Positions 7,979-38,868 of a stretch of 41,347 nt of DNA are shown in pieces. The position numbers and the translations under genes were made by a program. This DNA is from a virus. Its lineage: Duplodnaviria > Heunggongvirae > Uroviricota > Caudoviricetes. How positions within the stretch are numbered: the stretch's first letter is position 1; the number at the start of each line of letters is the position of its first letter. The notes beneath the pieces were generated by a model. It searched no databases, was not told the DNA's origin, and saw nothing but the letters and a program-made list of their open reading frames with translations. The stretch is taken from positions 1 through 41,347 of the IMG/VR virus record IMGVR_UViG_3300025889_000082, one strand, 5' to 3'.

Positions 7979-7990
7979 AAATCAATCCAA

Positions 7991-10900: not shown

Positions 10901-13552
10901 CTTGCTAAGTTAAACAGACAAGCTAGAACTAATGCCAATGCTGAGTCTTTAGAGGAAATCAAAGAGTTGATGGATATTAGAGAGAGGTTTGTTAAGAGAG
11001 GTGGAGACATTAGACAGACTATTAAAAAGATCTATCAAAAGGATGATAAAGGACAATGGATAAACAGACTTGTATATAAGTTTGATAAGAAGTTCTTTGA
11101 AGAAGTTGATGCTAGAGCTGCAGCTGGAGGAGATATGACTTGGCTTAGAAATAACATTGATGTTGATGCCTATAAGAAAGAAGCAGATGCTGTTCTAGAA
11201 AAGAATCTTAAACGTATAAATGAGCAGTTTCCTGGTGATAGTCCAGAAATTGTAGAGAAAAGAGAAAAGGCAATTACACAAGAAAGTCGCAAGTATGATA
11301 TTACTAGAAAAGACTTTAATGGTTGGAACAATTATATTATTAAAAGACATCCTATAAGTAAATGGGAATCTGCTGATTATAAGGATATTAAGAATGATCC
11401 AGACTTACTAGCATTATATAATTACGTTAGTAAGATTAATAAAAAGGCTAACCAAGAAGGATTTATTCAAAACTCTGTATCATCATTCTTCTTGCCATTT
11501 GTTAGAAAGACAATGGCAGAAAGTCTTGTTTGGGATGGTAAGTTATCTGTAATGGATAATTTCTATCAAAGCTTAAAGATTAATCCAGATGATGTAGGAT
11601 ATGGTAAGTTTGATGAAATCACTGGTAAGATGGAGAACTCCATTCCTAAGTATTACACATATGACTTTACCAATAAAGATGGTGTGAATGATTATTCTGA
11701 GGTGAGTGAAGACTTATTTAAGAACATGATCTTATACATCCAACAGGTTAATAAGTATAAATACCTAACAGAAGTAGAAGAACAAGTTAAATTCTTACGT
11801 ACTATTGAGGAGTTCAAGAATGCACATCTTGCTGTAGACAGAGTTAGTAATATTGTGATGGATGATGATGGTGAGCCTAAAGTGATGACAGGTAATGATG
11901 AGAACATCAAAATGTTAGATGACTTTACAAGAGCTGTATTCTATGAACAAAAGTATGTATTGTCAGATACTGACACTCCACTATACTTTGGTAAGGTGGT
12001 AAATGGTATGAAAGGAGTGTTTAATTCTATAGTGGGAAGAGAGGTGTTTAAACCTAATGAGCAAGTAACAGCAACATCTATGATTAAAACCATGGATGCT
12101 ATGAACAGAGGATTTCAAATTAAAACATTAGGTCTTGAGTTCTTATCAGGAGCTGTGAACGCATTTGGTACTAACATTCAGATGGCTGCCCAAGCAGGAG
12201 AATACTTCAAAGCAAGAGAGTTTGCTAAGAATGAAGCAAAGCTTTTATTACAGAATATAGAAGATAAACAAAAGTTTGTTGAGTTAATCAATACATTCTT
12301 ACCTCTTTCAGAAGATCCTTCTTATGAAATGTTTAAGAAAGCAGGTTTAACTACATTAACTCAGAATAACTTAGGTGACATGTTGATGATATTTATGAAA
12401 TATCCTGAACAACATGCAGAAAAGACAACCTTCCTTACCTTGTTAGAAAACACAATGGTAGTAGATGGTAAGATTGTAAGCATACCTAAGTATGTAAAAA
12501 ACAAATACAAAGATCGTAACTCTAGTCAAGCTAGATATAGAGAGACTAAACCTTTGATAGAGAAGGAGATAGAGGAATTGAAGAAAGACAAATCTATTGC
12601 TGCTACATCAAAAATGGAAGATGGCAAGTTAGTTATCCCTGGTTTAGATTTAAGCAATAAAAAAGAGCTACAAAGATTAGGACTTCTAAGCAAACGCTTA
12701 TCTGAGGCTGCAACTGGTAATGTTAGTAAAGAGAATATGAACAGAATGGGGATGTCTATCTGGACAGCTAGCATGATGGTATTCAAGAGATGGATTCCTA
12801 AGCTTGCAGACACACGTTTCTCTGAGTTCAGAAAGGTAGCTAATGACTTCTCTGTAGAGTTTGGAGAAGAGGGTATCCATGGAGAGAGCTATGATATTGG
12901 TAGAATACGTCTACTAGGTTCTGTATTAGGAAGATCTATCATGGAACGTAGTAACTATATCAAGGATATTCTTGTTATGAATGATGCAGGTATTGCAGAA
13001 CTTGATAGAATGTACTATGAATATGCTCAAGAATATAAGAAAAGAACTGGTGAAGAGATGACTATGACCAAGGATGATTTCATTGACATGGTTAGAAACA
13101 ACTTACGTAACCAGCTTAAGGAATTAGCAATCTTGTTATCTTTACTTGGTGCAATGCTTGCTCTTGGTATTATGGCTCCTGATGATGATGAGGGAGATAG
13201 AGCTTCTAGAAACTTCCACAGATATGCACAAAAGACAGTTGATAAGTTTGTGGGTGAACTTTCCTTCTTCTATAACCCAGCTGAGGTGCAAAGATTGGCT
13301 AGTGGTAGTATCTTCCCAGCAATTGGAGTTTTAGATGATGTAAGCAAGTTCACAAAACACTTCTTTATAGAAACAACAGGTATGGACTTTGATCCAAGCA
13401 CCACAGAAGAAGAAGCTAGAAAGAAAGCAAGACCTATCAAATACTTAATGAAAGCAGCTCCTGTAACTAAATCTATATTGACTTATGGAGCAATATTTAG
13501 CCCTGAGTTTGCTAAAGAATTTGATATTACTATCCAAAAACAAAATAGATAG
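7991..13552 (+). CDS. Large polyvalent virion cargo/ejection protein (ART-PolyVal-like, degenerate zincin, PD-(D/E)xK nuclease-like, C-terminal TM helix)
   Basis: 1853 aa directly after the vRNAP. Motifs: FKNWFGNWE...VDANGEPLIVYHG...ELRIFNPNQVKS; EEMVH (9017-9031); AGTIDFLAIEPDGKTHILDWK...QLGTY; hydrophobic LAILLSLLGAMLALGIMA near the C-terminus. Confidence 0.75.
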   Translation: MAECQVFRNDDGVIERVEAPNGQPSTLYKTLQDLVKDKEQALRLWAQVYTDSFKNWFGNWEKGQGSKTVDANGEPLIVYHGGGDLTGKTINVPFHVAPSMEEAAIWASRPGKTYGGGLFSRKDLLELNYNGVKDSSGKQIKTTFVRDPKTKEYTPSVERAIEILDEYEKFTLTPLFISTQNNWEETELNGKELKELRIFNPNQVKSVLNEGSFAIDKGGYDNTQVRTEAIPSGGNVVERKMARKSELEGRGAFNVQFIEGGIKYSFDPTNIYFQDKEMESSTASAQTIAKIKEVLNKMGVSIEELYSYAKKNNIDVKGKSGLADLTRGVIAIADQQEGQALTEEMVHIATAMIEQTNPALITQMISKIDRFKIYKETFEAYKDTYTLPNGKPDIRRIKKEAVDKLIAELIVNQMENTDQFPELREEVNQSFVRNLWNTILDFIKGMYTKANIDIFTEVASQIGSGDISGDIADMKQGGIFFQLSDAQKKIVDSLDQTKNTITKVYEDQEKVDPILLDSEEASNYYQAQKPDGTTERVLKRVTDRVKAWYKKKFPGKIFTKQEKEFNELKRKFGVKGHQDLEDIHHRYYNEDGTRRVKPIDAPSTFNLDTKQMYQLLENYYVKLIDSFDKDTIIRAEVIIYNSKDKEAGTIDFLAIEPDGKTHILDWKFLQFAEGSEDVAFFKQGAYDIQLGTYKDILRNYYGVKSFGMTRAIPIMMKMEMENKPDGTSENVIKGIAIGSVDPKQITDLRLLPVSEKTESTGYQKLDKYLAKLNSLYERISSQPAEEEERQFKYARMRELKRAIRLAQGTGNIAELINVILTTRAKGEQLINTYDVSFKNRDANSEDSTNEELSEFAGELRNYIETAEIFDRVDAEIGDLIYSPEMEIDAKTDEDKKLLNELKTLRDNLKREGENIYKSKQELIDIAFKFADKHIGQRNLITGLTKPEAVTKGLASNFRGLEDLGQRSLNILAKLNRQARTNANAESLEEIKELMDIRERFVKRGGDIRQTIKKIYQKDDKGQWINRLVYKFDKKFFEEVDARAAAGGDMTWLRNNIDVDAYKKEADAVLEKNLKRINEQFPGDSPEIVEKREKAITQESRKYDITRKDFNGWNNYIIKRHPISKWESADYKDIKNDPDLLALYNYVSKINKKANQEGFIQNSVSSFFLPFVRKTMAESLVWDGKLSVMDNFYQSLKINPDDVGYGKFDEITGKMENSIPKYYTYDFTNKDGVNDYSEVSEDLFKNMILYIQQVNKYKYLTEVEEQVKFLRTIEEFKNAHLAVDRVSNIVMDDDGEPKVMTGNDENIKMLDDFTRAVFYEQKYVLSDTDTPLYFGKVVNGMKGVFNSIVGREVFKPNEQVTATSMIKTMDAMNRGFQIKTLGLEFLSGAVNAFGTNIQMAAQAGEYFKAREFAKNEAKLLLQNIEDKQKFVELINTFLPLSEDPSYEMFKKAGLTTLTQNNLGDMLMIFMKYPEQHAEKTTFLTLLENTMVVDGKIVSIPKYVKNKYKDRNSSQARYRETKPLIEKEIEELKKDKSIAATSKMEDGKLVIPGLDLSNKKELQRLGLLSKRLSEAATGNVSKENMNRMGMSIWTASMMVFKRWIPKLADTRFSEFRKVANDFSVEFGEEGIHGESYDIGRIRLLGSVLGRSIMERSNYIKDILVMNDAGIAELDRMYYEYAQEYKKRTGEEMTMTKDDFIDMVRNNLRNQLKELAILLSLLGAMLALGIMAPDDDEGDRASRNFHRYAQKTVDKFVGELSFFYNPAEVQRLASGSIFPAIGVLDDVSKFTKHFFIETTGMDFDPSTTEEEARKKARPIKYLMKAAPVTKSILTYGAIFSPEFAKEFDITIQKQNR

Positions 13553-13695: not shown

Positions 13696-16600
13696 ATGGA
13701 TCCAATTTGCTCTACTGAACCTTGTCCAGTCATACTGAATTCTACCTGCGTATTCTATGAAGGTGCTAATTTGTTGTACACTGGTATCAATACTAATGAC
13801 AGCATCCAAACTGCTCTACAAAAAATAGATGCTAAGTTTCAGGAAGCTGCAATTGGATATTTATTTAATAATGGTGTCTATCAGTCTGGACCAGGATTAC
13901 CTGTAGGACTTGGTGGCACTATGGATCATGACACTATTATTACAGCTGCAGGATTTGATTTAACATATACAGGAGATGTATATGCAGCTAAACATATTAC
14001 AATTGGTGGTACCTCTTCTGATTTTGTTAAGGGAGATGGTAGCTTAGATAGTACAGCATACCAACCAGCAGGTGCTTATATCACAGCACTTACAGGAGAT
14101 GGAACTGCTTCAGGACCTGGTTCTGCATTGTTTACATTAGCAACAGTTAACCCTGCTCCTGCTACCTATGGTTCTGCTACACAAGTTCCTAGATTTACAG
14201 TGGATGGAAAAGGACGTGTTACAAGTGTTACTCCTGTAACAATTGCTGTTCCTTCTGCATCTTTATCTTTTATAGGAGATGTAACAGGTATTGGAACAAC
14301 AGGTTCTCCTGTGACGTTGACATTGGCTACAGTGAACAATGATGTATATGGAAGTAATACTTTCTTAAAGTTTGCTGTGAATGCTAAAGGATTGGTTACA
14401 TCAGCCACTCCTGTTACACATCTTGATATTGAATCTGTGCTTGGATACATACCTGTTCCTAGCACTAGAACATTAACAATCAATGGTGTTGCCTATTCAT
14501 TATCTGCAAATAGAACATGGTCAGTAGGTACCTTGATTTCTGTGGCATTAACAATGCCTCCAGCATTCACTGTACTCACATCTGCAACAGGAACAAATGG
14601 TACAATCAATGTCATAGCTAATGGTTCAGCCTCTCAATATATAAGAGGTGATGGTACTCTTGGTAGCTATTTTGGTACAGCAGGTACATCAGGCTCCAGT
14701 GGTACATCAGGTATATCTGGAGACAAATATAGAACAACATCCACTACACCTTTTACATTAGGTAATAGTGGTACGTTGATTGTAGCAACACAGCTAGGAT
14801 ATAGTGTAGCTCAATCCATCATAGTAGTGTATGATCTTAACAACTTCCAAGAGTGTGAGGTGGTTGCTTATGACTTTAACACTGGTTTATTAGAATTTGC
14901 ATTTCCTACAAGAACTGTAGGAAGTGGTACATATAGTGATTGGACAGTAAACTTAGATGGTGCTAGTGGTGGTAATGGAACTTCTGGAACCTCTGGTTCT
15001 AGTGGTACTACAGGATCTAGTGGCTCTAGTGGAACTGCTGGTACATCTGGCTCTGCTGGTACATCAGGTAGCAGTGGTAGTAGTGGTGTAAGTGGAACCT
15101 TTGGTACATCAGGAACTGATGGTAGCTCTGGCACTTCTGGTTCTTCTGGAACAACTGGTACATCTGGTTCTAGTGGATCTTCAGGTACAAATGGTTCTTC
15201 TGGAACCTCTGGAACATCTGCAAGCTCTGGTAGTTCAGGCACCACTGGTACATCTGGTACTAGTGCAAGCTCTGGTACTTCTGGATCTTCTGGATCTTCT
15301 GGTACAAGTGGAACTAATGGTACGTCTGGTACAGCTGGAACATCAGGGTCATCTGGAACAAGTGGAACAAATGGTAGCTCTGGAACCAGTGGTACATCAG
15401 CTACATCTGGCTCTTCTGGCTCTAGTGGTACATCTGGCTCTAGTGGTACGTCTGGATCAAGTGGTACAAGTGGATCAGCAGGAACAAGTGCTACCTCTGG
15501 AACTTCTGGATCTAGTGGTACGTCTGCTACAAGTGGAAGTTCTGGTAGCTCAGGTACAAGTGGTACGTCTGGTTCATCAGGAACAAGTGCAACAGCAGGT
15601 TCTAGTGGAACCTCTGCAACTAGTGGATCTTCTGGCACTTCTGCTTCTTCAGGCACAAGTGGGTCTTCTGGAACTAGTGGAACAAGTGGAAGTAGTGGTA
15701 CATCAGCAACAAGTGGTACTTCAGGATCATCTGGATCATCTGGAACAAATGGTTCTAGTGGAACAAGTGCTTCCTCAGGTACATCTGGTAGCTCTGCTAC
15801 ATCAGGTACATCTGCTACAAGTGGTTCGTCAGGATCTAGTGGAACCTCTGGTACATCTGGAAGTTCTGGAACGTCAGCTTCAAGTGGTTCTAGTGGAACA
15901 AGTGGAACGTCAGGTTCAAGTGGTACATCAGGTACTAATGGAAGTTCTGGTACAAGTGCTACATCAGGCTCATCAGGTACAAGTGCAACCAGTGGCTCTT
16001 CAGGTACTAGTGGTACAAAGGGTACGTCTGGAACTAGTGGGACAAGTGGAAGCAGTGGATCAAGTGGAACTTCTGCAACTTCAGGATCAAGTGGAACCAG
16101 TGGTACTAATGGATCAAGTGGCACAGCAGGTACATCTGGTACGTCTGCAAGTAGTGGTACTTCAGGTAGTTCTGGCACATCTGGTACAGCAGGAAGCTCT
16201 GGTGTAAGTGGTGTGGCTGGTGGTCTTGTATACTACATGAACTTGTCTACTAATACCAATAGTGCATTTGGTACACCTACATACAAGGAGTGGAGTCCTA
16301 TTGCATCAGGTGCTGCACAACAGACAACTAATATTACATTAGGTGCTTCTGCTAGTGGTACTATTGCAACATTTGCTACAGATAGTGGTGTTCCAGGAGC
16401 AACTGTATTAGAAGCAGGTAACTGGGCTTGGACATTGCACTTCTTATCTAGTGCTGATTCAACATGGGATATAGACGTACATTTATATAAATATACAACA
16501 GGTGGTGTTTCTACAATGTTAGGAAACACAAACAATGTTGTTACAACAATTAGTGGAACTGTAGTAACACAAATCTACATTGACACATTCATTGCATCAC

Positions 16601-19344
16601 AGTCATTGAATTCAACAGATAGACTGTATTGCCAAGTGAACGTAATAAATAATGATAGCGTAAGCAGAACATTAACTCTCTATACAGAAGGAACAAGTTA
16701 TTATTCTTACGCACAAACCACATTCAATCCTCCTAGTGGTACCTCTGGTACATCTGGAGCTAATGGTTCTTCAGGCACCTCTGGAACGTCAGGGTCTTCA
16801 GGTACATCAGCTACCAGTGGTACGTCTGGTTCAAGTGGATCAAGTGGTACAAGTGGAACTAAGGGTACCTCTGGTACATCAGGCACAAGTGGAAGTTCTG
16901 GCACTAGTGGAACGAGTGGTTCTTCTGGTACCAGTGGCTCTAGTGGTACTAGTGGGTCAAGTGGAACAAGTGCTACAAGTGGATCAAGTGGTACATCAGC
17001 AACCTCTGGTTCATCTGGTTCTTCTGGAACATCTGGCACATCAGGATCTTCAGGAACTTCTGCTTCTAGTGGAAGCTCTGGTACGTCTGGCACATCTGGA
17101 TCTAGTGGCACAAGTGCTACTAGTGGATCTAGTGGAACTAGTGGAAGCTCTGGAACAAGTGGGTCTAGTGGCACATCAGCTACATCTGGGTCTTCAGGTA
17201 CAAGTGGAACAAAAGGAACAAGTGGTACAAGTGGTACCAATGGTTCTTCAGGTACAAGTGGTACGTCTGGGTCTTCTGGTACAGCAGGTACAAGTGGTAG
17301 CTCTGGTTCTAGTGGAACATCTGGTTCTAGTGGTACAAGTGCAACATCAGGATCTTCTGGGTCTAGTGGTACTAGTGGCACGAGTGGAAGTAGTGGAACA
17401 TCAGGAACTGATGGAAGCTCAGGTAGTAGTGGTACAAGTGGTTCATCTGGTACATCAGCAACATCAGGCACTTCTGGTTCATCAGGTACTTCAGGTACTA
17501 AGGGGACATCAGGTACATCAGGAGCAAATGGTTCCAGTGGTACTAGTGGTACTAAGGGCACATCTGGAACTAGTGGAACTTCTGGTTCATCAGGAACATC
17601 AGCTACAAGTGGTTCCTCTGGAACATCTGGTACAGATGGTAGTTCTGGGTCTTCTGGAACAAGTGGTACAGATGGTAGTTCTGGTTCAAGTGGTACATCT
17701 GGTACTGATGGTAGCTCAGGTTCATCAGGAACATCTGGAACTTCTGGTTCTTCAGGAACAAGTGGTACTAAAGGAACATCAGGAACTTCTGGAGCTAATG
17801 GTTCTAGTGGTACTTCAGGAACAAAAGGTACATCTGGAACTTCTGGAACTTCAGGCTCTAGTGGAACTGCTGGTACTAGTGGTAGTTCTGGTACAAGTGC
17901 AGCTAATGGAACTTCTGGAACTTCAGGAACTGATGGATCTTCTGGAACTAGTGGTATAAACGCAACTGCAGGAACTAGTGGTGTAAGTGGTTCTAGTGGT
18001 ACTAGTGCTACAGCTGGAACAAGTGGTACCAATGGATCTAGTGGAACTTCTGGTGCCAATGGTGCTGCAGGTAGCAGTGGTACTTCTGGTACGTCAGGAG
18101 CAAATGGTGCTGCTGGGTCTAGTGGTACTAGTGGAACAAAGGGAACATCAGGAACATCTGGAGCTAATGGAGCTGCTGGTTCTTCAGGAACTAGTGGTAC
18201 TAAGGGTACAAGTGGTACAGCAGGAGCCAATGGTGCTAATGGATCTAGTGGAACGTCTGGTGCAGGTACAATCAGTGGTACTACAGGTTATATAGCCAAA
18301 TTTACTAATAGTACAACTGTTGGTAATAGTATTATAAGTGAAAGTGGTACTGTTATATCAGTCGCTGGAAGTTTAACTGCAACAGGTACTGTAACTGGAA
18401 ATGGTGTATCAATTGGTGCAAGTGATGTAAGGTCAAGTAGTAATGTTTTGACATTAGGTGGAACTTCAGAAGTTATTCGTATTGTTGGTTCTACTGGCTT
18501 TGTAGGTGTTGGTACTACTGCACCATCTTATCAATTAGATGTTCAAGTAAATAATGGTTCTTTCACATCAAGAATTAAAAACTTAAACACCACAACTGAT
18601 AACGCAGGTTTAATAGTTAGTGCTGGTGTTAATGCAGGTAATGAAATTATTTTACTTGAGAATGCTGCTGGTACTGATAGATTTACTGTATTTGCAAATG
18701 GGCAGGTGACAATGGTTGGAGCAAACACTACAACTGTTCCTATACTTGGTATAACAGTGTCAGGTTCTGGTGCATTCCAAAGAGGTGTTAGAATGTTAAA
18801 TAGTGGTATGGGTGCTGGGGATAGTTTAATGTATGCAACTGGACAGTCTGATGGTTCTAAAAACATGGGTCAATTCTATTTCTATTATGCTGGTGCAGCA
18901 AGTAATAGTAATAGATTGTCAATGGGATTACATTCTGTTGATGATGTATTTAATATTTTTGGAAGTTCTAACGTAACCATAGGCACAACATCAGATGCAG
19001 GGTATAAACTATATGTTAGTGGCACTATCTACGCAACTGGAGATATCACAGCATCTTCTGATGCCAGATATAAAACAAACATCAGACCAATTGAGAATGC
19101 TTTAGAAAAGATAGTTAGCTCAAGAGGGGTGGTATATGACAGAGTGGATGAAGAGAGCTTTGACAACATTGGATTTATTGCTCAAGAATTGGAGGTGTAT
19201 TTCCCAGAACTAGTTTCTACAGATAACCAAGGATTCAAGGGAGTTAAATACCAAAATGCTGTAGCTGTTCTATTCGAGGGAATCAAAGAACAACAAAAAC
19301 AAATTGAAGAATTAAAAACTTTAATAGATGGCTTTACCAAGTAG
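13696..19344 (+). CDS. Long tail fibre/adhesin with Gly-X-Ser repeat shafts and C-terminal peptidase S74 intramolecular chaperone
   Basis: Cys-rich N-terminus; two GDxxG..TLATVN..YGS..VxxKGxVTS shaft repeats; two (GTS/GSS)n blocks; GFVGVGTTAP...LDV-type repeats; SDARYKTNI...GFIAQE...KYQ...LFEGIKEQQKQIEEL S74 signature. Confidence 0.88.
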   Translation: MDPICSTEPCPVILNSTCVFYEGANLLYTGINTNDSIQTALQKIDAKFQEAAIGYLFNNGVYQSGPGLPVGLGGTMDHDTIITAAGFDLTYTGDVYAAKHITIGGTSSDFVKGDGSLDSTAYQPAGAYITALTGDGTASGPGSALFTLATVNPAPATYGSATQVPRFTVDGKGRVTSVTPVTIAVPSASLSFIGDVTGIGTTGSPVTLTLATVNNDVYGSNTFLKFAVNAKGLVTSATPVTHLDIESVLGYIPVPSTRTLTINGVAYSLSANRTWSVGTLISVALTMPPAFTVLTSATGTNGTINVIANGSASQYIRGDGTLGSYFGTAGTSGSSGTSGISGDKYRTTSTTPFTLGNSGTLIVATQLGYSVAQSIIVVYDLNNFQECEVVAYDFNTGLLEFAFPTRTVGSGTYSDWTVNLDGASGGNGTSGTSGSSGTTGSSGSSGTAGTSGSAGTSGSSGSSGVSGTFGTSGTDGSSGTSGSSGTTGTSGSSGSSGTNGSSGTSGTSASSGSSGTTGTSGTSASSGTSGSSGSSGTSGTNGTSGTAGTSGSSGTSGTNGSSGTSGTSATSGSSGSSGTSGSSGTSGSSGTSGSAGTSATSGTSGSSGTSATSGSSGSSGTSGTSGSSGTSATAGSSGTSATSGSSGTSASSGTSGSSGTSGTSGSSGTSATSGTSGSSGSSGTNGSSGTSASSGTSGSSATSGTSATSGSSGSSGTSGTSGSSGTSASSGSSGTSGTSGSSGTSGTNGSSGTSATSGSSGTSATSGSSGTSGTKGTSGTSGTSGSSGSSGTSATSGSSGTSGTNGSSGTAGTSGTSASSGTSGSSGTSGTAGSSGVSGVAGGLVYYMNLSTNTNSAFGTPTYKEWSPIASGAAQQTTNITLGASASGTIATFATDSGVPGATVLEAGNWAWTLHFLSSADSTWDIDVHLYKYTTGGVSTMLGNTNNVVTTISGTVVTQIYIDTFIASQSLNSTDRLYCQVNVINNDSVSRTLTLYTEGTSYYSYAQTTFNPPSGTSGTSGANGSSGTSGTSGSSGTSATSGTSGSSGSSGTSGTKGTSGTSGTSGSSGTSGTSGSSGTSGSSGTSGSSGTSATSGSSGTSATSGSSGSSGTSGTSGSSGTSASSGSSGTSGTSGSSGTSATSGSSGTSGSSGTSGSSGTSATSGSSGTSGTKGTSGTSGTNGSSGTSGTSGSSGTAGTSGSSGSSGTSGSSGTSATSGSSGSSGTSGTSGSSGTSGTDGSSGSSGTSGSSGTSATSGTSGSSGTSGTKGTSGTSGANGSSGTSGTKGTSGTSGTSGSSGTSATSGSSGTSGTDGSSGSSGTSGTDGSSGSSGTSGTDGSSGSSGTSGTSGSSGTSGTKGTSGTSGANGSSGTSGTKGTSGTSGTSGSSGTAGTSGSSGTSAANGTSGTSGTDGSSGTSGINATAGTSGVSGSSGTSATAGTSGTNGSSGTSGANGAAGSSGTSGTSGANGAAGSSGTSGTKGTSGTSGANGAAGSSGTSGTKGTSGTAGANGANGSSGTSGAGTISGTTGYIAKFTNSTTVGNSIISESGTVISVAGSLTATGTVTGNGVSIGASDVRSSSNVLTLGGTSEVIRIVGSTGFVGVGTTAPSYQLDVQVNNGSFTSRIKNLNTTTDNAGLIVSAGVNAGNEIILLENAAGTDRFTVFANGQVTMVGANTTTVPILGITVSGSGAFQRGVRMLNSGMGAGDSLMYATGQSDGSKNMGQFYFYYAGAASNSNRLSMGLHSVDDVFNIFGSSNVTIGTTSDAGYKLYVSGTIYATGDITASSDARYKTNIRPIENALEKIVSSRGVVYDRVDEESFDNIGFIAQELEVYFPELVSTDNQGFKGVKYQNAVAVLFEGIKEQQKQIEELKTLIDGFTK
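14971..16221 (+). repeat. Coding triplet repeat block 1, (G-T/S-S)n, about 415 aa
   Basis: Gly at nearly every third residue (occasional Ala), X/Y almost only Ser/Thr, with heavily mixed synonymous codons. Confidence 0.95.
16738..18261 (+). repeat. Coding triplet repeat block 2, (G-T/S-S)n with GTK, GTD, GAN and GAA variants, about 505 aa
   Basis: Same periodicity, with higher-order units such as GTSGTDGSSGSS x3 (about 17620-17725) and GTSGANGAAGSS. Confidence 0.95.
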
Positions 19345-19796: not shown

Positions 19797-20156
19797 ATGG
19801 AAATTGTTTATCAATGGGTGATATCCCAAATGCAAGAAGTGCCTCAAGAAGGTTCTTTAACAGATATAGTAATGTTTATTCACTGGAGAAGAAATGCATT
19901 TACAACAGTAGATGGCAAAGAGTATGTAGCAGATACATATGGAGCATATGCATGTCCTGCTCCAAGTGGAACAGACTTCACTCCTTATAGTGAACTTACT
20001 GAGGATCAAGTAATTAGCTGGTTAGATGCTGGCTTAGATGTAGAAGCTATTAATAGGAACTTAGCAGCTCAGTTAGATCAACAAATCAATCCTCCTCTTA
20101 TAGTCCTACCTCTACCTTGGGAAACTACCACCACTACAACTACAACTACAATATAA
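19797..20156 (+). CDS. Conserved phage protein (fibre-accessory type) with C-terminal poly-Thr tail
   Basis: IHWRRNA...FTPYSELTEDQVISWL...LPLPW core; ends ETTTTTTTTI. Confidence 0.65.
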   Translation: MEIVYQWVISQMQEVPQEGSLTDIVMFIHWRRNAFTTVDGKEYVADTYGAYACPAPSGTDFTPYSELTEDQVISWLDAGLDVEAINRNLAAQLDQQINPPLIVLPLPWETTTTTTTTTI

Positions 20157-20206: not shown

Positions 20207-20554
20207 ATGAAAGCTTTAGAGTTAAAGTTTGGTAAGGAGAAAATTCAAGGAAGAGAGACATTCTTTTCTACAGCTGACTTATTAAAAGCAGCTATTAATA
20301 ATGTACCTAGAGAAGGAGGTATGGATGTTAAAGAGATGTCTACAAGACTTCGCTTATTAAAGATTGTAGATGCTCACAAAGAGTTTAATATTGAAGAGAA
20401 AGACTTTACAGATTCTTACTTAGCTATCAGAAAGACTGTAGAGTTTGAAGATGCTGACTTTGTAAAGTTGAAAGATTTATTCAATGCTGTGAAGTGGGGT
20501 GTTGTTTCTGAATTCATTATTGAGTTAGGTGAAACATTAGAAAAAACTAAATAA
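20207..20554 (+). CDS. Hypothetical protein (possible assembly chaperone)
   Basis: 115-aa ORF with its own promoter and an A-rich start; converges on and overlaps the glycosylation operon by 8 bp. Confidence 0.7.
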   Translation: MKALELKFGKEKIQGRETFFSTADLLKAAINNVPREGGMDVKEMSTRLRLLKIVDAHKEFNIEEKDFTDSYLAIRKTVEFEDADFVKLKDLFNAVKWGVVSEFIIELGETLEKTK

Positions 20555-21614
20555 GTTTTTTCACTTCTTCCAATACATCATTCATAGAAATAGCCTTATG
20601 ACATTCAAAATGTCTAGGGCTATTTTCATTTTCAGGACACCAGTTCCAGTCTCCCTTATTAAACTTAAACAATGGATTGTTCCAACATCCATGGCACACA
20701 TTCTTATTAGTGATTCTTATACAACTAAACTCATGGTCTTCTTCTGTGAAGTTAGATATCATCACTGTCTCTTTACCAACAGCCCAGTTTAACCAGCTGA
20801 TGCCACTAGATAGTCCTATATATGCCTTTGCATAATATAGATAGTTCATTACATTGTTTAAGGAAGTGTCTGTAAGTTTGATTGCACCTAAGTCATCAGC
20901 TTCTTGAGACATCTCAATCACTTTATATCCCATTGATTGTAGCTCACTGATAAGCTCTTTCCAATAATACCAATGTTTACATTGTGCTGTAGATCTTGTA
21001 GATATGCAAATATATCTATCTTCTATAGGACGTGTTGGTGTAAAAGCTATCCTAGGTTGTATTTCTCTATGCTTTAGATTTAATATATTAGAAGCTGCTT
21101 GTTGTAATGGTATAGTGGCAGGATGTATAGGTTCTTTATTACTATCCCAGAACCATCCTATTTCAAACATTGCTATGAGGTTATCTACTCTCACCCCTCT
21201 ACCTACAAACTTAAGCTCAGGATATACAGACTCAAACAGTTCATTCTTGAATGTAGATACTATGACATCACATTGGTATACATTCTTAAACTCTAAACAG
21301 TATGGTATCCAAGCAATGCTGTCTCCCAATGAACTAGATTCAAAAGATATAAACACACGCTTACCTTTTATTTCATCTAACAGATTGATTTGCTTAATGG
21401 TGCGTCCTTGATACTTAATGAATATAGCTATGTCTGATAGATATTTTCTGCTAAGCTTAGCCCAACTTCCTGGTCTCATCTTCACTTCATATATAATCTC
21501 ACTCTTTGATGTAGTTGTATCTACAAACACTACATCATACTCTCTGTTCTTGCCCTCATCTCCTAGTAACTCAAAGTGCAAACCATGGACATGTGTTAAA
21601 TTATAAGTTACCAT
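20547..21614 (-). CDS. AAH/TibC (BAHT)-like protein O-glycosyltransferase (autotransporter heptosyltransferase family, GT-B fold)
   Basis: GSWAKLSRKY...KRVFISFESSSLGDSIAWIPY, STAQCKHW, GLSSGISWLNWAVGKETVMISNFT and Cys cluster VCHGCWN...WCP...FEC all parallel recalled AAH/TibC motifs. Confidence 0.8.
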   Translation of the reverse strand: MVTYNLTHVHGLHFELLGDEGKNREYDVVFVDTTTSKSEIIYEVKMRPGSWAKLSRKYLSDIAIFIKYQGRTIKQINLLDEIKGKRVFISFESSSLGDSIAWIPYCLEFKNVYQCDVIVSTFKNELFESVYPELKFVGRGVRVDNLIAMFEIGWFWDSNKEPIHPATIPLQQAASNILNLKHREIQPRIAFTPTRPIEDRYICISTRSTAQCKHWYYWKELISELQSMGYKVIEMSQEADDLGAIKLTDTSLNNVMNYLYYAKAYIGLSSGISWLNWAVGKETVMISNFTEEDHEFSCIRITNKNVCHGCWNNPLFKFNKGDWNWCPENENSPRHFECHKAISMNDVLEEVKKLI

Positions 21615-23861: not shown

Positions 23862-24848
23862 TTAGTTTAATTTAATTGTTCCCTTTTCTTTAAACAGGGA
23901 TAAGTTTTGGTTGGTTAATGTAAATTTCTTAGACAAAAATAAGTATTTTTTATCAATGTCATACACTTCTACACGTATTTCTTCTCCATCTAATTTGTAT
24001 GTATTGAACCAGTAGTGTCCTTTACCTAATATCTGTGTTTGTGTTAGTTCATTATTCTTGTAAATGTCAACATGTTTCCACTCTTCTAGTATAAGTGTAT
24101 TCATTATAAATAGAACAGGCTCTTCTGGAACCACCTCATTATACAATAGCTCACAGTTAAAGAGTCCATATCTAAGCACATTCACATCACTGTCTGTGAA
24201 GATGTTAGAGCTATGGTCATGTACTAGTAAGAACTGGTCTTCATGTTTACTAAACTGTTCGTAGAAAGATAGTTCTAATGTATAGCCCATAGGAATTCTT
24301 AACCACTCGTGTACATCTAATGGAGGTTGGAATGTATATAGGAAGTAGTCTAGATTACCACCAAACAATAAGGTTTCATATACATAAGAACCTTCACAGT
24401 CCCTATACTCCTCAGGTCTAAAGAATAACATCTTCTTACCCAAGCCACCCATTTCATCCATCAGTCCAACTAGTTTTGCTGCATCAGGTTGAGATAGAAG
24501 AACATCACACTCTGTAAATACAAACTCATCATAGCCCATTGCTTTTGCTAGGTTCATTCCAGCTCTCATGTTTCTGCATATAGGTAGTGTGTGTCCTGCA
24601 TTAAATATATTTATAATATATTCATCTGTTTGAAACCACCAGTTGGGAGTGTATGTAGGGGGGAGGAAGGTGTTGTTGCTATCATAGATGGTATATTGCA
24701 CCTTTTCAGCAGTGGCTTTATCAATTGGCAAATGAGCTACAATCATAATATCCCACCCTGTATGTTTGAATCCATCTATACATCTGTTAAGAATATCTAT
24801 CTCTCTTTGACCAGATGGATAACAATCTATAATAGCTATTCTTTTCAT
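23862..24848 (-). CDS. Putative glycosyltransferase-like protein of unassigned family
   Basis: Lies within the GT operon; contains TECDV (DxD-like); N-terminus is paralogous to the middle domain of the neighbouring 883-aa protein. Confidence 0.55.
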   Translation of the reverse strand: MKRIAIIDCYPSGQREIDILNRCIDGFKHTGWDIMIVAHLPIDKATAEKVQYTIYDSNNTFLPPTYTPNWWFQTDEYIINIFNAGHTLPICRNMRAGMNLAKAMGYDEFVFTECDVLLSQPDAAKLVGLMDEMGGLGKKMLFFRPEEYRDCEGSYVYETLLFGGNLDYFLYTFQPPLDVHEWLRIPMGYTLELSFYEQFSKHEDQFLLVHDHSSNIFTDSDVNVLRYGLFNCELLYNEVVPEEPVLFIMNTLILEEWKHVDIYKNNELTQTQILGKGHYWFNTYKLDGEEIRVEVYDIDKKYLFLSKKFTLTNQNLSLFKEKGTIKLN

Positions 24849-27496
24849 TTCTTTCTAAATGATTTTTCCATGTTGTCTATTAAGGAGAATCCATCTGCTT
24901 GGGTAGTAAGTCTTTCGTACACAATACCCATCTTTTGGTTGTTAAATATAATGTTGAAATACATATCTGCAGCATCCCAAGGTTCTTTACGTAATGTTTC
25001 TTTCAACCATGGAGCTATATGTATAGGGAACATAATTGATTGTAAACCAATGATATGATCTGTTTCATACATTACATCATTAATCTTTCTCACCTCAGGG
25101 CTTTGTGGCCAGCCATGTTCTAATGTATCTTTATCTCCAAAGGACATGAATTCAATATTGTTAATAATCATTTCATGTGCACAGCTTTCCACAGTGGATA
25201 TGAAGTGTTCAATTGGTGCTTCAATAATACAATCACCTTCACACACCATCAAGAAATCACAGTCATGGAATTCACTTAGGATGGCATCTCTGAATGCTTG
25301 GTAGCATCCATAATGTGCTGGGGTAAGTGCAGTGCCATACTGTTGAACTTGCTGTTCATTGAAGAGTTCCATTGAAACACAAAAGGGCCTGATGCAGTTG
25401 TGCTCAGGTGGTAATGATCTGTAGGGATAGTTAAGATGTAATTTGTATTCCCATCCATGGTCTCTAACTCTTTCAAGGGATGCTCTGCTAGCTTGTTCTC
25501 TTTCATCGTTTAATGTAGTTTGTATATGAACTAATTTAATTCTAGGTCTTTCTTTCTTCTTAAATTCAAACCTACCTGTGCTTTGATACTTATCTAAATT
25601 GTCCTTATGTAGGGTGTGTTTTTCTATCTTGTAGCAATGGTCTCCATCATAGAAGTCTAGTTGTATATCAATAGGCTCTCCCTTAAATACAAAAGGATAC
25701 ATCCATTCTCTAGTCTTAGCCACCTGTATTCTCTTATCTATATCACCAATAGTAACATATATAGTTCTATGGTCTACATTATATGTAAAGAAATAGAACA
25801 TATAATTGTTTGGTTTTCCAACAATTGGTATAATAGAATAATATTCACTGTTAGAAGATGTGCCTAAGCCACTATGAACCAATAAGGTTTCTTGTTCATT
25901 GGTGATTATTTCTGTATTATCATCAGTGATTCTCTTTGATAGATAGTCTTCTAGGAAGTTATGAGCTCCTATCCACTCACAGATTCTGTTGTATTCTTGT
26001 GGATCTGTAGCGTCATCAAATGTCTTCAAGAAATAATCTACATCATACATCATTCCATTGGTCTGAATTCCCTTACCCATAGGTGTAGGGAGGGTAGCTA
26101 CATATGCGTTCTTACCAGAGGATAATGCTTTTTCAATAACATCTAAATCTTTACTATCTACCACCACATCATATGTATTGTAGAACACTCTCTTATATCC
26201 ATTCTGTTTAGCAGCTTTCATTCCATTGAATATATTAACTAACACTGTAAGGGACTGGTTGGTATCCTTCAATCCATTGATATTAATCTCAGCATAGTAG
26301 TTAGGAGTATCATTATAAAACCTAGTGTAATAGCTATGATGAGTGAGTGGGTTGTTCTTGTCATATACATAATAGTCTACCATGCGTTGTGTCTCATCGT
26401 CTACAGGATAGTGACTTACTAACATAATCTTTCTACCTAAGGGCTTCATAGATTGTATTGTACGTTTTGTAAGACTAACTCTTTCCTTCAGATTGGGATA
26501 GGTACCTATGATGATAAGTTCCTCATCTAATCTGTTGAGATTTAGACGTATCATAATATTAACTAAATCAAAAGAAACATCTCCTGTTAGATACATAACA
26601 TCTTCCTGTCCATTATACTTATTACAATACACATCTAGATTATACATCATCTTAATTAAGTCAGGATACTCCATGGCTTCTTTGATGGCTATAGGGTTTA
26701 GTTCCTTATTGCCTCTGTCTCCTTTGGATGGGAAGAAGAACACATCACATGCCTGTAAGAATTCAGATACATCATTACGTTCTCCCCAGACAACACAATT
26801 ATCTGGTTTGTTATTCATCAATGGTTCCCAATAGTCTTTAAAGTTGTCTGCTTGGTTACCTAGGAAATGAAACTTCACCTTATACTTCTCCAAGTGCTTA
26901 GCTATTTCAAAAGCATAGGCTTGGTTCTTTCTTGGAGTGAACAATCCCACTATAGCAAAGTGTTTATATGCAGGATCTAAGCCTAGTTTATTCTGCATCT
27001 CTATTTTGTTACGCTCTTTCTTATCTATAGGGTATTCAATAATCTCTGTTGGAACAGGTAAGTTTACATATTTAAAAGCATTGTATGCACTAACAAATAT
27101 AAATTTATCAGGTAGATAGTATTTATGTTTAGGATTGAAAGAACTATCATGTGTAGTTTCTACTATCTTCCAAGGTTTTTTTAAATCATACAAGTAGTCT
27201 GCAGATTGTCTATCTAAGAACATCTCTGGAAACTCTTCCATAGCTATTACATCTGGTTGCCAGTTCTCTACCACTCTTGTAAGCTCTTCATACTTGTTCT
27301 CTCCTAGGGATATAAAGTTGTTAACTCCTACTAGTTCTATAATTCTATTTCTTTGCACTACAAAGTTCCATGCTATGAATGCATGTTCTATCACTAATAT
27401 ATCAAACACATCCTTAAGAAGTGCTATCTTATTCACTGTTACCTGAGGGGCTCCTCCTGTTGATAGATGAGGAGTGATTACTAATAGTTTTTTCAT
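24845..27496 (-). CDS. Tri-domain glycosyltransferase: GT4-like + unassigned GT-A-like + GT25-like
   Basis: Likely start MKKLLVITPHLSTGGAPQ at 27496 (ATGA overlap with the upstream gene). FFFPSK..ELNPIAIKEA (GT4); middle domain with YDVVVD; C-terminal HYGCYQAF...VCEGD (GT25-like). Confidence 0.75.
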   Translation of the reverse strand: MKKLLVITPHLSTGGAPQVTVNKIALLKDVFDILVIEHAFIAWNFVVQRNRIIELVGVNNFISLGENKYEELTRVVENWQPDVIAMEEFPEMFLDRQSADYLYDLKKPWKIVETTHDSSFNPKHKYYLPDKFIFVSAYNAFKYVNLPVPTEIIEYPIDKKERNKIEMQNKLGLDPAYKHFAIVGLFTPRKNQAYAFEIAKHLEKYKVKFHFLGNQADNFKDYWEPLMNNKPDNCVVWGERNDVSEFLQACDVFFFPSKGDRGNKELNPIAIKEAMEYPDLIKMMYNLDVYCNKYNGQEDVMYLTGDVSFDLVNIMIRLNLNRLDEELIIIGTYPNLKERVSLTKRTIQSMKPLGRKIMLVSHYPVDDETQRMVDYYVYDKNNPLTHHSYYTRFYNDTPNYYAEININGLKDTNQSLTVLVNIFNGMKAAKQNGYKRVFYNTYDVVVDSKDLDVIEKALSSGKNAYVATLPTPMGKGIQTNGMMYDVDYFLKTFDDATDPQEYNRICEWIGAHNFLEDYLSKRITDDNTEIITNEQETLLVHSGLGTSSNSEYYSIIPIVGKPNNYMFYFFTYNVDHRTIYVTIGDIDKRIQVAKTREWMYPFVFKGEPIDIQLDFYDGDHCYKIEKHTLHKDNLDKYQSTGRFEFKKKERPRIKLVHIQTTLNDEREQASRASLERVRDHGWEYKLHLNYPYRSLPPEHNCIRPFCVSMELFNEQQVQQYGTALTPAHYGCYQAFRDAILSEFHDCDFLMVCEGDCIIEAPIEHFISTVESCAHEMIINNIEFMSFGDKDTLEHGWPQSPEVRKINDVMYETDHIIGLQSIMFPIHIAPWLKETLRKEPWDAADMYFNIIFNNQKMGIVYERLTTQADGFSLIDNMEKSFRKK

Positions 27497-28431
27497 ATAA
27501 GTCTGGATATTATATTTATAACGTGTTCTACAGATGGATGGCATTCAAATGTTTCTTTCTTCTCTAAGCATCCAATTAGAGGTTGTACAGAGTCTATAGT
27601 GTCCCAATACTCAAGAGCATATTTCATGTTAGAGCTGCAATGTAATCCACAGCTTCCTCCAATATATTCATGTCTCCACCCCTGCTCTCCATATCTATAA
27701 GGAGTTCTAAACTCAGGATTGATAGCTGATCCTAATTCAAATATTAATGTTTCAGTGGTGGCTGCTAGATGTAGAATACCAGAGTCCATAGTGACTACAG
27801 CTGTAGAATTGTTAAGGATGTACCAAGTTTCAGATATGGATGTCTGATTCATTAGGTTGATGATGTTGGTGTTTCCTAATTCATGTACAGGTTTGTTTAC
27901 ATTAAAGAAACCTGTCTCAGAACTATCTTTACCTATGGCAACCACTTTGTATCCCAGCTCAATTAACTTTTCAGATAGTTTAAGCCAATTATCTTGAGAC
28001 CAAGTTCTATTAGGCCAGCTGTTAACAGGATGTATCACTACATATTTACCTGATATATTGTTAACCATTTGTTCTGTTGGTCTATAGAAACAATCCATCT
28101 CATCTCTTCTAAGCATAAATCCTAAATGAATTGCATGGAACTGCCTGATATCCATCATGTTATGCTTCATTTCTACACCTCTCTCATCCTTCTTACCTAC
28201 CAAATAGAATGAATTATGAACAATGTAATTACTTTGTATATACTCCATGTCTATAGAGCTGTTCTTATAGCTCTTCTCTACATAAGGATTCATCTTAAAT
28301 AACTCAGGCATCTGAGACAGTATAGTTATCTTTCTACCATAGCTTTCAGATAGTTTTTTGATGGTGGGAGTAGCACAAATAAGGTCCCCAAGACCATTAC
28401 ATTCTGATAAGTTTAAACAAACTGGTTTCAT
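27493..28431 (-). CDS. GT9-like glycosyltransferase (ADP-heptose:LPS heptosyltransferase superfamily) with C-terminal Cys cluster
   Basis: GLGDLICATPTIKKL, VIHP..SWPNRTW, DSGILHLAA, CGLHC...CLE...FECHP. Confidence 0.8.
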   Translation of the reverse strand: MKPVCLNLSECNGLGDLICATPTIKKLSESYGRKITILSQMPELFKMNPYVEKSYKNSSIDMEYIQSNYIVHNSFYLVGKKDERGVEMKHNMMDIRQFHAIHLGFMLRRDEMDCFYRPTEQMVNNISGKYVVIHPVNSWPNRTWSQDNWLKLSEKLIELGYKVVAIGKDSSETGFFNVNKPVHELGNTNIINLMNQTSISETWYILNNSTAVVTMDSGILHLAATTETLIFELGSAINPEFRTPYRYGEQGWRHEYIGGSCGLHCSSNMKYALEYWDTIDSVQPLIGCLEKKETFECHPSVEHVINIISRLI

Positions 28432-36555: not shown

Positions 36556-37665
36556 ATGGCAATACCAAGTAGACAGATAGGCTGGGGCACAACAGACAAC
36601 TTGTTGTGGGAAATCTCTAAACAGATAGAGGGCATTGGTTGTATCATTGCGTGTGGTACTTCTGGGTATGGTACGTCAGGTACATCAGGATACTCAGGAG
36701 ATAAGTATTTAACTACATCTAGTAGTTCATTTACACTAGGTACTTCTACAACATTAACTGTTGGAACTGGTTTAGCTTACACTGTAGCCCAAGACATCAT
36801 CATAGCACATGATATTGATAATCATCAAACTTGTATGGTTGAAAGCTATGATCCTGTTACAGGTATAATGGTTATAGGTCCTCCTTTTACAGTTACTGGT
36901 AGTGGAACCTATACATCTTGGTTTATTAATCTTGATGGAGCAGCTGGGGGTAATGGTACAAGTGGCACTTCTGGAACTTCTGGGTCATCAGGGTCATCTG
37001 GTTCTAGTGGAACTACAGGAACTAGTGGATCTTCAGGTAGCTCAGGAACTAGTGGAATAAAAGGAACAAGTGGCACTAGTGGTACAAATGGCTCTTCTGG
37101 TACTGCTGGAACAAGTGGGTCTTCAGGAACTTCTCCTGTGTTTCCTTTTCCAACAGTATTTGGATTATTCTCTCAAACAGGTGATAGTACTCCAGTTACA
37201 AATACAGTAACAGAAACAACAATCATTAATGGTGGTGTTGGTACACTGACTGTAGGAGCTAATCAATTTTCTGTTGGTGATAGTTTTAGAGCAGACTTTG
37301 GTGGTGTTGTAAGCACTGGTAATAATCAAACTATTAGACTTAGAGTGAAAGCAGGATCTGTAATATTGTTAGATAGTGGAGCACAGAATATAAATAATGT
37401 TACTAACAATGTTTGGTCTTTATCAATCAACTTTACTATTAGACAGTTAGGTGCTGCAGGTGTAGCGTCAATTGTTTCTTTAGGAACATTTAATTATGCT
37501 AAGACAGTAAATGGTACTGTGGAAGGATTTTCTTTCAATACTGTGAATAACACTACATTTAACACAACAGTTAGTAATACATTAGATGTTACAGTTGAAT
37601 GGGGTGCTGCTACTACAGCAAATACTATCTATAGTGACATATTTGTATTAAATAAAATATATTAA
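36556..37665 (+). CDS. Short fibre/decoration protein with Gly-Thr-Ser repeat
   Basis: MAIPSRQIGW N-terminal module; about 95-aa domain paralogous to the long fibre; about 60 aa of GTS/GSS; beta-rich C-terminal domain. Confidence 0.7.
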   Translation: MAIPSRQIGWGTTDNLLWEISKQIEGIGCIIACGTSGYGTSGTSGYSGDKYLTTSSSSFTLGTSTTLTVGTGLAYTVAQDIIIAHDIDNHQTCMVESYDPVTGIMVIGPPFTVTGSGTYTSWFINLDGAAGGNGTSGTSGTSGSSGSSGSSGTTGTSGSSGSSGTSGIKGTSGTSGTNGSSGTAGTSGSSGTSPVFPFPTVFGLFSQTGDSTPVTNTVTETTIINGGVGTLTVGANQFSVGDSFRADFGGVVSTGNNQTIRLRVKAGSVILLDSGAQNINNVTNNVWSLSINFTIRQLGAAGVASIVSLGTFNYAKTVNGTVEGFSFNTVNNTTFNTTVSNTLDVTVEWGAATTANTIYSDIFVLNKIY

Positions 37666-38849: not shown

Positions 38850-38868
38850 CCTAATTAAAAAAACAATT

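Follow-up and report, generated by a model that had tools for sequence, protein, structure and literature searches.

A thumb-less TibC-type glycosyltransferase encoded beside a collagen-like tail fibre gene in a phage genome

Research on BAHT-type protein O-glycosyltransferases such as TibC and AAH has so far treated them as virulence-linked enzymes that modify the autotransporters of proteobacteria. These enzymes (TIGR04414; PDB entries 4RAP and 4RB4) are soluble, combine a beta-barrel with an atypical GT-B core and a 1Fe-0S-type four-Cys finger, and are encoded next to the gene for a long, repetitive, Ser-rich surface protein. Here we describe a gene for an enzyme of the same domain order, hereafter called BAHT, in a 41,347-nucleotide stretch of viral DNA (the window), which comprises positions 1-41,347 of the 105,347-bp IMG/VR virus record IMGVR_UViG_3300025889_000082 (CheckV completeness 92%). 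That the setting is a phage, as the original prediction from the DNA letters had claimed, is borne out by the virus record itself, by a tail fibre with collagen-type and S74 domains, and by a GH19-type endolysin encoded in the window. Unlike the loci of TibC and AAH, this genome carries no autotransporter gene, with no ORF (open reading frame) in the 105 kb matching an AIDA-I passenger or beta-domain even at E < 1. The neighbour of BAHT encodes a collagen-type Gly-X-Y repeat rather than a beta-helix, and the gene resides in a seven-gene glycan operon, while most of its relatives are fused to a GT4 domain.

Collagen-like proteins that depend on sugars have been described elsewhere. A survey of collagen folding lists as stabilizers proline and hydroxyproline (Pro/Hyp), salt bridges between Lys and Asp/Glu, and glycosylated Thr, and notes that (Gly-Pro-Thr)10 folds only if galactosylated, citing the cases of Riftia and BclA (PMC11923368). 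As in the phage fibre, the Gly-X-Y repeats of Bacillus anthracis BclA (O-glycosylated GPT repeats) and of Riftia cuticle collagen (galactosylated Thr) are rich in hydroxy-amino acids, and glycosylation is the proposed or demonstrated stabilizer that replaces hydroxyproline (PMC11923368). However, those repeats contain proline and bear the sugar on Thr at the Y position, whereas the phage repeats have no proline and mostly place Ser at Y. The glycosyltransferases acting on BclA and Riftia collagen are not known to be of the BAHT type. A multi-sugar, partly methylated glycan like that of BclA is plausible for the phage fibre.

Glycosylation of virions by phage enzymes is described for mycobacteriophages, whose glycosyltransferases decorate the phage's own structural proteins in the infected cell (Freeman et al., 2023, PMC10527164, as cited in PMC12619734). 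According to that citing account, the targets are the C-terminal tails of capsid and tail-tube subunits, unlike the fibre considered here, and no BAHT-type enzyme or collagen-like fibre has been reported for these phages as far as the searched literature goes. A more distant comparison is offered by the lipopolysaccharide (LPS) enzymes WaaC and WaaF (GT9; PDB entries 2H1H and 1PSW), which share with BAHT the GT9 C-terminal lobe (PF01075) and similar donor-side residues, and which, like TibC, use ADP-heptose. However, they have neither beta-barrel nor iron finger and act on a lipid-linked sugar acceptor, and their structural similarity to BAHT is limited to a template modelling (TM) score of ~0.5.

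A TibC relative without the thumb hairpin

BAHT is an uninterrupted ATG-to-stop ORF whose product matches the NCBIfam model TIGR04414 (hepto_Aah_TibC) at 232.4 bits (E 8e-69; curated cut-off 200) across model positions 27-374 of 374, and a six-frame search of the genome with the same model recovers the gene at 230.5 bits. By sequence, TibC (4RAP) aligns with residues 50-347 of the protein at E 2e-44. Pfam detects a generic GT9 C-lobe alone (PF01075, 26.9 bits; cut-off 22), the LPS heptosyltransferase model TIGR02193 reaches 19.4 bits, far below its cut-off of 185, and no PHROGs family is matched. An AlphaFold2 model built on 53 diverse homologues (predicted local distance difference test score, pLDDT, 95.7; predicted TM score, pTM, 0.92) places beta strands over residues 2-77, which make up a beta-barrel domain at the N-terminus. 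When this model is compared with the PDB by Foldseek, all 21 TibC chains rank first (TM 0.82-0.88, E down to 1e-34), with 4RAP at TM 0.87 and E 1e-34, and the domain order is the same in both proteins. The closest other structures, WaaC, WaaF and a Veillonella GT9, follow well behind (TM 0.36-0.54, E ~1e-8), with WaaC at TM 0.51 and the WaaC and WaaF entries together spanning TM 0.36-0.53.

The original prediction had assigned the gene to the AAH/TibC type rather than to the GT9 enzymes of LPS synthesis, had named a TIGR04414 search as a check, and would have yielded to a non-protein GT9 as best structural match. Profile and fold both side with the assignment, and the three motifs on which it was built (the N-terminal beta domain, the LGD loop and the four-Cys cluster) are all present. 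The LGD loop corresponds to L96-G97-D98, where D98 aligns with the catalytic base D110 of TibC and the D110A crystal entry 4RB4 reads LGA in the aligned column. The beta-phosphate contacts T226 and K230 of TibC correspond to T209 and K213, the heptose O4 contact W305 to W274, and the iron ligands C339, C342, C358 and C370 to C307, C310, C326 and C338, respectively. Each of these residues is conserved on both sides of the family, and those of TibC that match D98, T209, K213, W274 and the four Cys are essential for its activity (PMC4358343). Across the 53 diverse homologues, the LGD and four Cys columns do not vary; the D98 column is Asp in 165 of the 166 sequences used for the tree described below, and T209, K213 and W274 are kept in both alignments. 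In the 117 members of the clade to which BAHT belongs (33-76% identical to the window's protein), there is little or no variation at the catalytic Asp, the two beta-phosphate ligands, the Trp or the metal site, which implies selection for catalysis. With the four Cys of the iron finger retained, the protein is also predicted to bind iron.

Despite this conservation, the protein is ~30-35% identical to TibC and AAH and has lost two features of TibC. In the latter, the tip of a beta-hairpin thumb (F265/V266) joins dimers into a dodecamer, and the mutants F265D and V266D are dimers (PMC4358343). The alignment with TibC leaves a ten-residue gap in BAHT at the thumb tip, and the hairpin is absent from the AlphaFold2 model there. 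The thumb segment is 34 amino acids (aa) long in 48 of 49 canonical (autotransporter-side) sequences and 23-25 aa long in BAHT and 86 of the 117 clade members. Similarly, TibC Arg286 bonds adenine N1, and the R286A change abolishes or largely diminishes activity (PMC4358343), whereas the equivalent position in BAHT is Val255; Arg occupies this column in 46/49 canonical sequences and in 12/117 of those on the BAHT side.

The loss of the thumb, together with N-terminal fusions of 350-1100 aa in relatives, argues against a TibC-type ring. A 12-mer is consequently unlikely for BAHT, and the original description of the enzyme as dodecameric does not carry over, although a dimer formed through the iron finger may persist. 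From these comparisons, the protein is a true TibC relative yet a non-canonical member of the family, without the thumb, the adjacent autotransporter or the adenine-contacting Arg. The most apt classification is a thumb-less lineage within the TibC/AAH superfamily that pairs with Gly-Ser/Thr-Ser repeats, and the gene product is best explained as a soluble cytoplasmic protein O-glycosyltransferase.

Repeat proteins that accompany the enzyme in viral and cellular genomes

The candidate for the main acceptor in the window is a tail fibre, 1882 aa in length, encoded by a module convergent with the operon. As the original prediction had stated, this Ser-rich fibre is close by, since its gene ends at 19344, 1.2 kb from the stop codon of BAHT. 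In addition to non-collagen knobs and an intramolecular chaperone of the S74 type at its C-terminus, the protein has at least 261 Gly-X-Y triplets. Thr (58%) and Ser (34%) occupy most X positions and Ser (80%) most Y positions of these triplets, which gives ~450 hydroxyl side chains, while the repeats contain no Pro and only 17 charged residues among 522 X and Y positions. The fibre is therefore without the first two of the surveyed collagen stabilizers, Pro/Hyp and salt bridges. Prolyl-hydroxylase-type oxygenases (two 2OG-Fe(II) families, PF13759 and PF13640), carried by relatives that have other fibres, are absent from the 105-kb genome, which fits a shaft that has no proline to hydroxylate.

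To establish which genes travel with the enzyme, 80 viral BAHT loci were examined for homologues of the window's genes. The N-terminal GT4 domain (residues ~18-310) of an 899-aa operon protein has a homologue in 79 of them, and in 50 loci this domain is fused N-terminal to the BAHT domain within one ORF, a sign that both act together; in the window it is encoded by a separate gene. Other operon genes recur less often (the GT9 gene in 29 loci, that for a 340-aa GT4 protein in 27, GT2 in eight and the methyltransferase in four). To count as a fibre gene, an ORF had to include a Gly-X-Y repeat of 60 residues or more in which Ser/Thr made up no less than 40% and Pro no more than 3%. Such a Pro-free, Ser/Thr-rich ORF lies downstream of BAHT in 31 of the 38 viral loci with at least 9 kb of downstream flank, is convergent with BAHT in 30 of these 31, and in many cases starts within 0.4-2 kb. 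None was found among 13 upstream flanks, a control that is weak because the glycosyltransferase operon occupies this side.

The association is also evident when the search begins with the fibre. Loci were fetched by the fibre repeat alone, ignoring BAHT, and at least 4 kb after the fibre stop was required. BAHT was present at 16 of 26 Pro-free, Ser/Thr-rich fibres versus 2 of 24 fibres that contain Pro or are poor in Ser/Thr (Fisher p 1e-4). As a rough background, 1.0 Mb of viral DNA centred on endolysin genes, which consists of loci from kin of the window's phage, many of them short, holds one BAHT gene and one such fibre, both in the same locus.

Cellular genomes provide a further view of this pairing. 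In 80 loci from contigs representing one genome per species, an AIDA-like passenger gene adjoins BAHT in 33, mostly directly downstream, as in the textbook layout (Bradyrhizobium, Paraburkholderia, Reyranella and others). Other cellular loci have small Gly-Ser/Thr-Ser repeat ORFs flush with BAHT (Methylococcales, Arenicellales, a metagenome-assembled genome (MAG) of Pseudobdellovibrionaceae, Burkholderiaceae). On the complete Arenicellales chromosome OZ244198.1, for example, three small proteins (137, 203 and 153 aa) flank a BAHT homologue (stretch coordinates 8492-12562). All three have a signal peptide, (GSS/GTS)n tracts and a poly-Asp tail, with a clear lipobox in two and a similar Cys motif in the third. 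Ordinary two-component and metabolic genes lie around them, and the stretch read contains no phage genes. Proteins of this type are probably glycosylated and would form an undescribed class of repeat lipoproteins. Similar pairs of BAHT and repeat protein occur in Methylococcales and other Gammaproteobacteria.

The two kinds of neighbour correspond to two parts of a maximum-likelihood tree of 166 BAHT domains (quick search, unrooted, with sequences sampled by likeness to the window's protein). The branch that separates them has full support in the Shimodaira-Hasegawa-like approximate likelihood ratio test (SH-aLRT 100) and a length of ~0.5, and a single change of neighbour type, Gly-X-Y versus AIDA-like, suffices for the tree. 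The fibre side comprises 117 rows (all 85 viral sequences, including that of the window, and 32 cellular ones), and the canonical side comprises 49 rows, including the AAH reference that adjoins AIDA-I and all AIDA-like-paired loci placed on the tree. With a relaxed repeat detector, a (G-S/T-S)n ORF lies within 4 kb of BAHT in 18 of the 32 cellular fibre-side loci versus none of 48 canonical loci (p 1e-9). When the sequences are clustered, the pairing of BAHT with a repeat is seen in 44 of 62 clusters at 70% identity, in 17 of 28 clusters at 60% and in 5 of 8 clusters at 50%, which indicates that the association is old. Because the phage copies fall beyond a deep, fully supported split, on a side that has cellular members too, they are likely a sister lineage rather than a recent capture of an autotransporter enzyme. 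The original idea of an autotransporter enzyme repurposed by a phage is therefore not borne out.

The family is considerably more extensive than published work would suggest. An exhaustive search of 1.84 billion cluster representatives yields 1,282 clusters (50% identity) at E <= 1e-3, most of which represent multidomain proteins, 600-2,000 aa long, that carry the BAHT domain close to the C-terminus, and a word-indexed search of a 5.8-billion-sequence collection yields 1,731 relatives, the closest 69-78% identical and several of them on ~100-kb contigs. With at least 585 IMG/VR viral contigs that carry a relative, the window and the compared loci represent a second, probably larger BAHT branch with a different acceptor class, for most environmental members of which the automatic name 'autotransporter O-heptosyltransferase' is misleading. 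Among deposited phage records, 4 of 50,697 have a homologue, three of them from megaphages and one from Microcystis phage Mel-JY01. A 13-kb query had no Megablast match among deposited phages, and full-text literature searches found no paper that ties BAHT enzymes to phages or collagen-like proteins. In Mel-JY01, a cultured phage (PP395634.1; stretch coordinates 3065-8430), a 1226-aa protein that carries the annotation 'methyltransferase FkbM' ends in the BAHT domain. It has no Gly-X-Y neighbour, and directly upstream lies the gene for a 'structural protein' of 508 aa, in which ISSS/SGS motifs recur and Ser/Thr make up 26%. In cellular collections, the best matches (58-64% identity) are on short or phage-like MAG contigs, while true cellular copies are 30-40% identical. 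The contigs with these close homologues, most of which also encode a GT4 partner and a collagen-like fibre, carry the labels Gammaproteobacteria, Bacteroides, Ignavibacteriaceae and Flavobacteriales; they resemble phage DNA that was assigned to bacterial MAGs during binning, and may hint at hosts or represent contamination.

Proposed role, alternatives and donor sugar

Judging from sequence and gene order, we propose, with a probability of roughly 0.7, that BAHT starts the O-glycosylation of the phage's own collagen-like fibres and that the adjacent or fused GT4 enzyme and the rest of the operon extend the glycan. The seven-gene operon (28431 to 20547) would be expressed beside the fibre genes during infection. 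BAHT, with Asp98 as general base, would place the first sugar from a host-made nucleotide sugar onto Ser, and perhaps Thr, hydroxyls in several hundred G-T/S-S triplets of the fibre chains. The GT4 domain of the 899-aa protein would work directly with BAHT, and the WaaF-like GT9, the other GT4, the GT2 and the methyltransferase would extend and cap the glycan. The sugars would stabilize a triple helix devoid of both proline and salt bridges, in addition to shielding the fibre and shaping its surface. What we infer from the patterns above is which proteins accept the sugar, in what sequence the steps follow, which donor is used and how the fibre is affected. That BAHT may serve the Ser-rich fibre had already been suggested in the original prediction; comparative genomics strongly supports this in both directions and in cellular genomes.

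Several observations weigh against this proposal. No such fibre is nearby in 7 of the 38 long-flank BAHT loci, and no BAHT gene is near 10 of the 26 Ser/Thr-rich fibres. Adjacency in the vicinity of tail-fibre genes can mirror a shared hypervariable island instead of an enzyme-substrate pair, and many of the loci are related by descent, such that the counts are not independent events. Furthermore, the tree is unrooted and its sequences were picked for likeness to BAHT, so that the sequences on the fibre side may form a grade. TibC modifies a folded beta-helix within its dodecameric ring, and an enzyme without the thumb must handle its substrate differently. A predicted complex of BAHT with a 45-residue repeat (fibre residues 1306-1350) scored 0.01 against a mark of 0.34, which speaks neither for nor against the pairing.

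The enzyme could instead be a protein O-glycosyltransferase with other main targets, such as poly-Thr tails encoded in the virion region or Gly-Ser-Ser lipoproteins of the host, with the fibre at most a side substrate. Thr runs occur in several ORFs of the genome (19797-20156, 38824-39075 and four more outside the window), small GSS-repeat lipoproteins adjoin the cellular relatives and demonstrate that such host proteins exist, and the fused BAHT of Mel-JY01 has its Ser-rich structural protein in place of a Gly-X-Y neighbour. However, poly-Thr tails are not consistently near BAHT, with many loci lacking any Ser/Thr run of six or more residues, whereas the Gly-X-Y fibre is the consistent neighbour (31/38 loci). 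In addition, TibC and AAH are Ser-directed (PMC4358343), and most Y positions in the fibre triplets are Ser. We give this alternative a small chance.

A slimmer chance is assigned to the idea that, in infected cells, the operon's enzymes alter a glycan on the host surface (LPS core, capsule or S-layer glycan), for instance to prevent superinfection, and that the operon lies near the fibre gene only because accessory genes gather there. The GT9 signature (PF01075) of BAHT and the second, WaaF-like GT9 in the operon would suit such a role, and the same island in relatives contains APS (adenylylsulfate) kinase, sulfotransferase and other accessory genes. The island also seems variable, as evident from the presence of the glycosyltransferase cluster in 1 of 80 loci of endolysin homologues (73-82% identical), even though in the window it extends from about 2 to 10 kb from the endolysin gene. 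Against this, TibC is far better matched than the LPS enzymes (TIGR02193 19 bits versus 185; WaaC TM 0.51), and the iron finger and beta-barrel, marks of the protein-acting branch, are retained. The association is specific to Pro-free, Ser/Thr-rich repeats and does not extend to fibres in general, and it recurs on a bacterial chromosome, where the neighbours are repeat lipoproteins and the stretch read is free of phage genes. Moreover, a scan confined to six of the operon products gave no match to a flippase, ligase or undecaprenyl-phosphate transferase. It is very improbable, finally, that BAHT has kept its fold but transfers no sugar, serving for example as a fibre-binding assembly factor or chaperone. 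This idea draws on the absence of both the thumb and the adenine-contacting Arg, given that TibC F265D, V266D and R286A lose activity (PMC4358343), yet the catalytic, donor and metal residues remain nearly invariant across the 117 clade members, and the enzyme is set among, and often fused to, other glycosyltransferases.

If the fibres are glycosylated as we propose, this would explain how collagen-type shafts that are free of proline and almost uncharged can be stable. Collagen-like tail fibres would then be added to the few phage virion parts known to be glycosylated, which would bear on host recognition and protease resistance. The compact pair of enzyme and repeat would be testable in E. 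coli, and may be usable for sugar-coated collagen-like materials. A bolder version, which we consider tentative and on balance doubtful, holds that this whole thumb-less, TibC-like iron-finger lineage, with members on at least hundreds of contigs from uncultured phages and in some free-living bacteria, O-glycosylates Gly-Ser/Thr-Ser triplets, that the resulting sugar coat, in place of Pro/Hyp and salt bridges, lets imino-acid-free collagen helices fold, and that, given the lost Arg, the donor may not be ADP-heptose. If true, the coat would represent a third, sugar-only solution to collagen stability.

By analogy with TibC, BAHT may transfer heptose from ADP-heptose to protein Ser, and for the donor we lean slightly toward this sugar nucleotide. 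The presence of two GT9 enzymes in the operon, one of them WaaF-like, favours heptose. In line with the original statement that the window holds no genes for ADP-heptose synthesis, and with its suggestion to search the remaining genome for gmhA/hldE-like genes, families for gmhA, the rfaE kinase domain, NTP_transferase and CTP_transf_like have no match in the window or in the whole 105-kb record. Given that no nucleotide-sugar activation genes were matched, all donors of the operon must be made by the host. The possibility that the phage produces its own ADP-heptose was rejected, because gmhA is absent from all 48 BAHT-carrying viral records, including nine that are at least 90% complete, some of ~320 kb, and Mel-JY01.

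The original prediction had suggested that the donor may be novel, partly on the grounds that many Bacteroidota LPS cores lack heptose, an argument that proves weak. MAG binning hints at a possible Bacteroidota host, and the heptose-7-phosphate kinase family is present above the cut-off in 98 of 201 sampled genomes from the phylum of a Flavobacteriales MAG (128 at E <= 1e-60). As a general statement, the claim that Bacteroidota cannot supply heptose is therefore rejected, and host-supplied ADP-heptose is quite possible. A better argument for an altered donor than heptose-poor LPS, and one that the original prediction did not make, is that the adenine-contacting Arg has been lost across the clade, so that there is room for another nucleotide.

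The operon and other features of the genome

The coordinates of the relevant genes are collected in Table 1. Transcription of the operon runs from the gene for the WaaF-like GT9 through those for the 899-aa GT4 protein, its 328-aa paralogue, the methyltransferase, the GT2 and the second GT4 to BAHT, and the junctions are overlaps of 4-52 nucleotides or gaps of 1-2 nucleotides.

Table 1. Genes of the operon and candidate acceptors (window positions unless stated otherwise)
Feature	Position	Strand	Remarks
BAHT	20547..21614	-	Thumb-less BAHT-family protein O-glycosyltransferase (predicted), 355 aa; last operon gene; TIGR04414, TibC fold
GT4-family glycosyltransferase, 340 aa	21601..22623	-	PF00534/PF13692; overlaps BAHT start by 14 nucleotides
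GT2-family (GT-A) glycosyltransferase, 230 aa	22614..23306	-	PF00535, 28 bits
S-adenosylmethionine (SAM)-dependent methyltransferase-like protein, 183 aa	23309..23860	-	PF13489, 29.6 bits
328-aa protein	23862..24848	-	No Pfam or NCBIfam match; paralogue of about residues 340-660 of the 899-aa protein
899-aa multidomain glycosyltransferase	24845..27544	-	N-terminal GT4 domain ~18-310; PF00534 at residues 181-292
Barrel-less WaaF-like GT9, 312 aa	27493..28431	-	First operon gene; PF01075, 56.8 bits
1882-aa tail fibre	13696..19344	+	Proposed main acceptor; PF01391 E 5e-102; PF13884 (S74 chaperone) at residues 1788-1840; tail-fibre PHROGs
DUF7936 protein	19797..20156	+	Possible extra acceptor; PF25590 E 9e-24; C-terminal run of nine Thr
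369-aa protein	36556..37665	+	Candidate acceptor; 22-triplet Pro-free Gly-Ser/Thr-Ser run at residues 128-193; PF01391 29.6 bits; tail-fibre PHROGs
1541-aa protein	88631-93253 of the genome (outside the window)		Third Pro-free Gly-Ser/Thr-Ser protein

The first operon gene was considered as a second BAHT and ruled out, since its product has no barrel, is 24% identical to BAHT over 118 residues, and finds its top match among the sequences of solved structures in WaaF (1PSW, E 8e-6). The relationship between the 328-aa and 899-aa proteins is evident by phmmer (E 1e-16), and free-standing copies of the 328-aa module, which match residues ~341-660 of the longer protein, occur in other loci. At the opposite end of the operon, the 3′ ends of BAHT and of a plus-strand 115-aa ORF (20207-20554) converge with an 8-bp overlap (20547-20554), which leaves no space for a terminator between the two transcription units. 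The DUF7936 gene lies between the fibre and BAHT genes, and in relatives it is part of the fibre module.

The occurrence of the cluster near only one of the 80 endolysin homologues implies either that the endolysin gene is mobile or that the cluster is a variable island among kin. In ~70%-identical relatives the glycosylation cluster is flanked by several 2OG-Fe(II) oxygenases (PF13759, PF13640), APS kinase and sulfotransferase. The modification island is modular, and hydroxylation and sulfation may be added in other phages. Elsewhere in the window, a 338-aa protein (37833-38849, plus strand), labelled a GT-A enzyme in the original prediction, belongs to PHROG 4417 (unknown function) and has a homologue within 10 kb of BAHT in 18 of the 80 viral loci. 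Its gene is followed by a small ORF (38824-39075) whose product ends in two T7-AAP repeats, and the two may represent a second protein-glycosylation pair.

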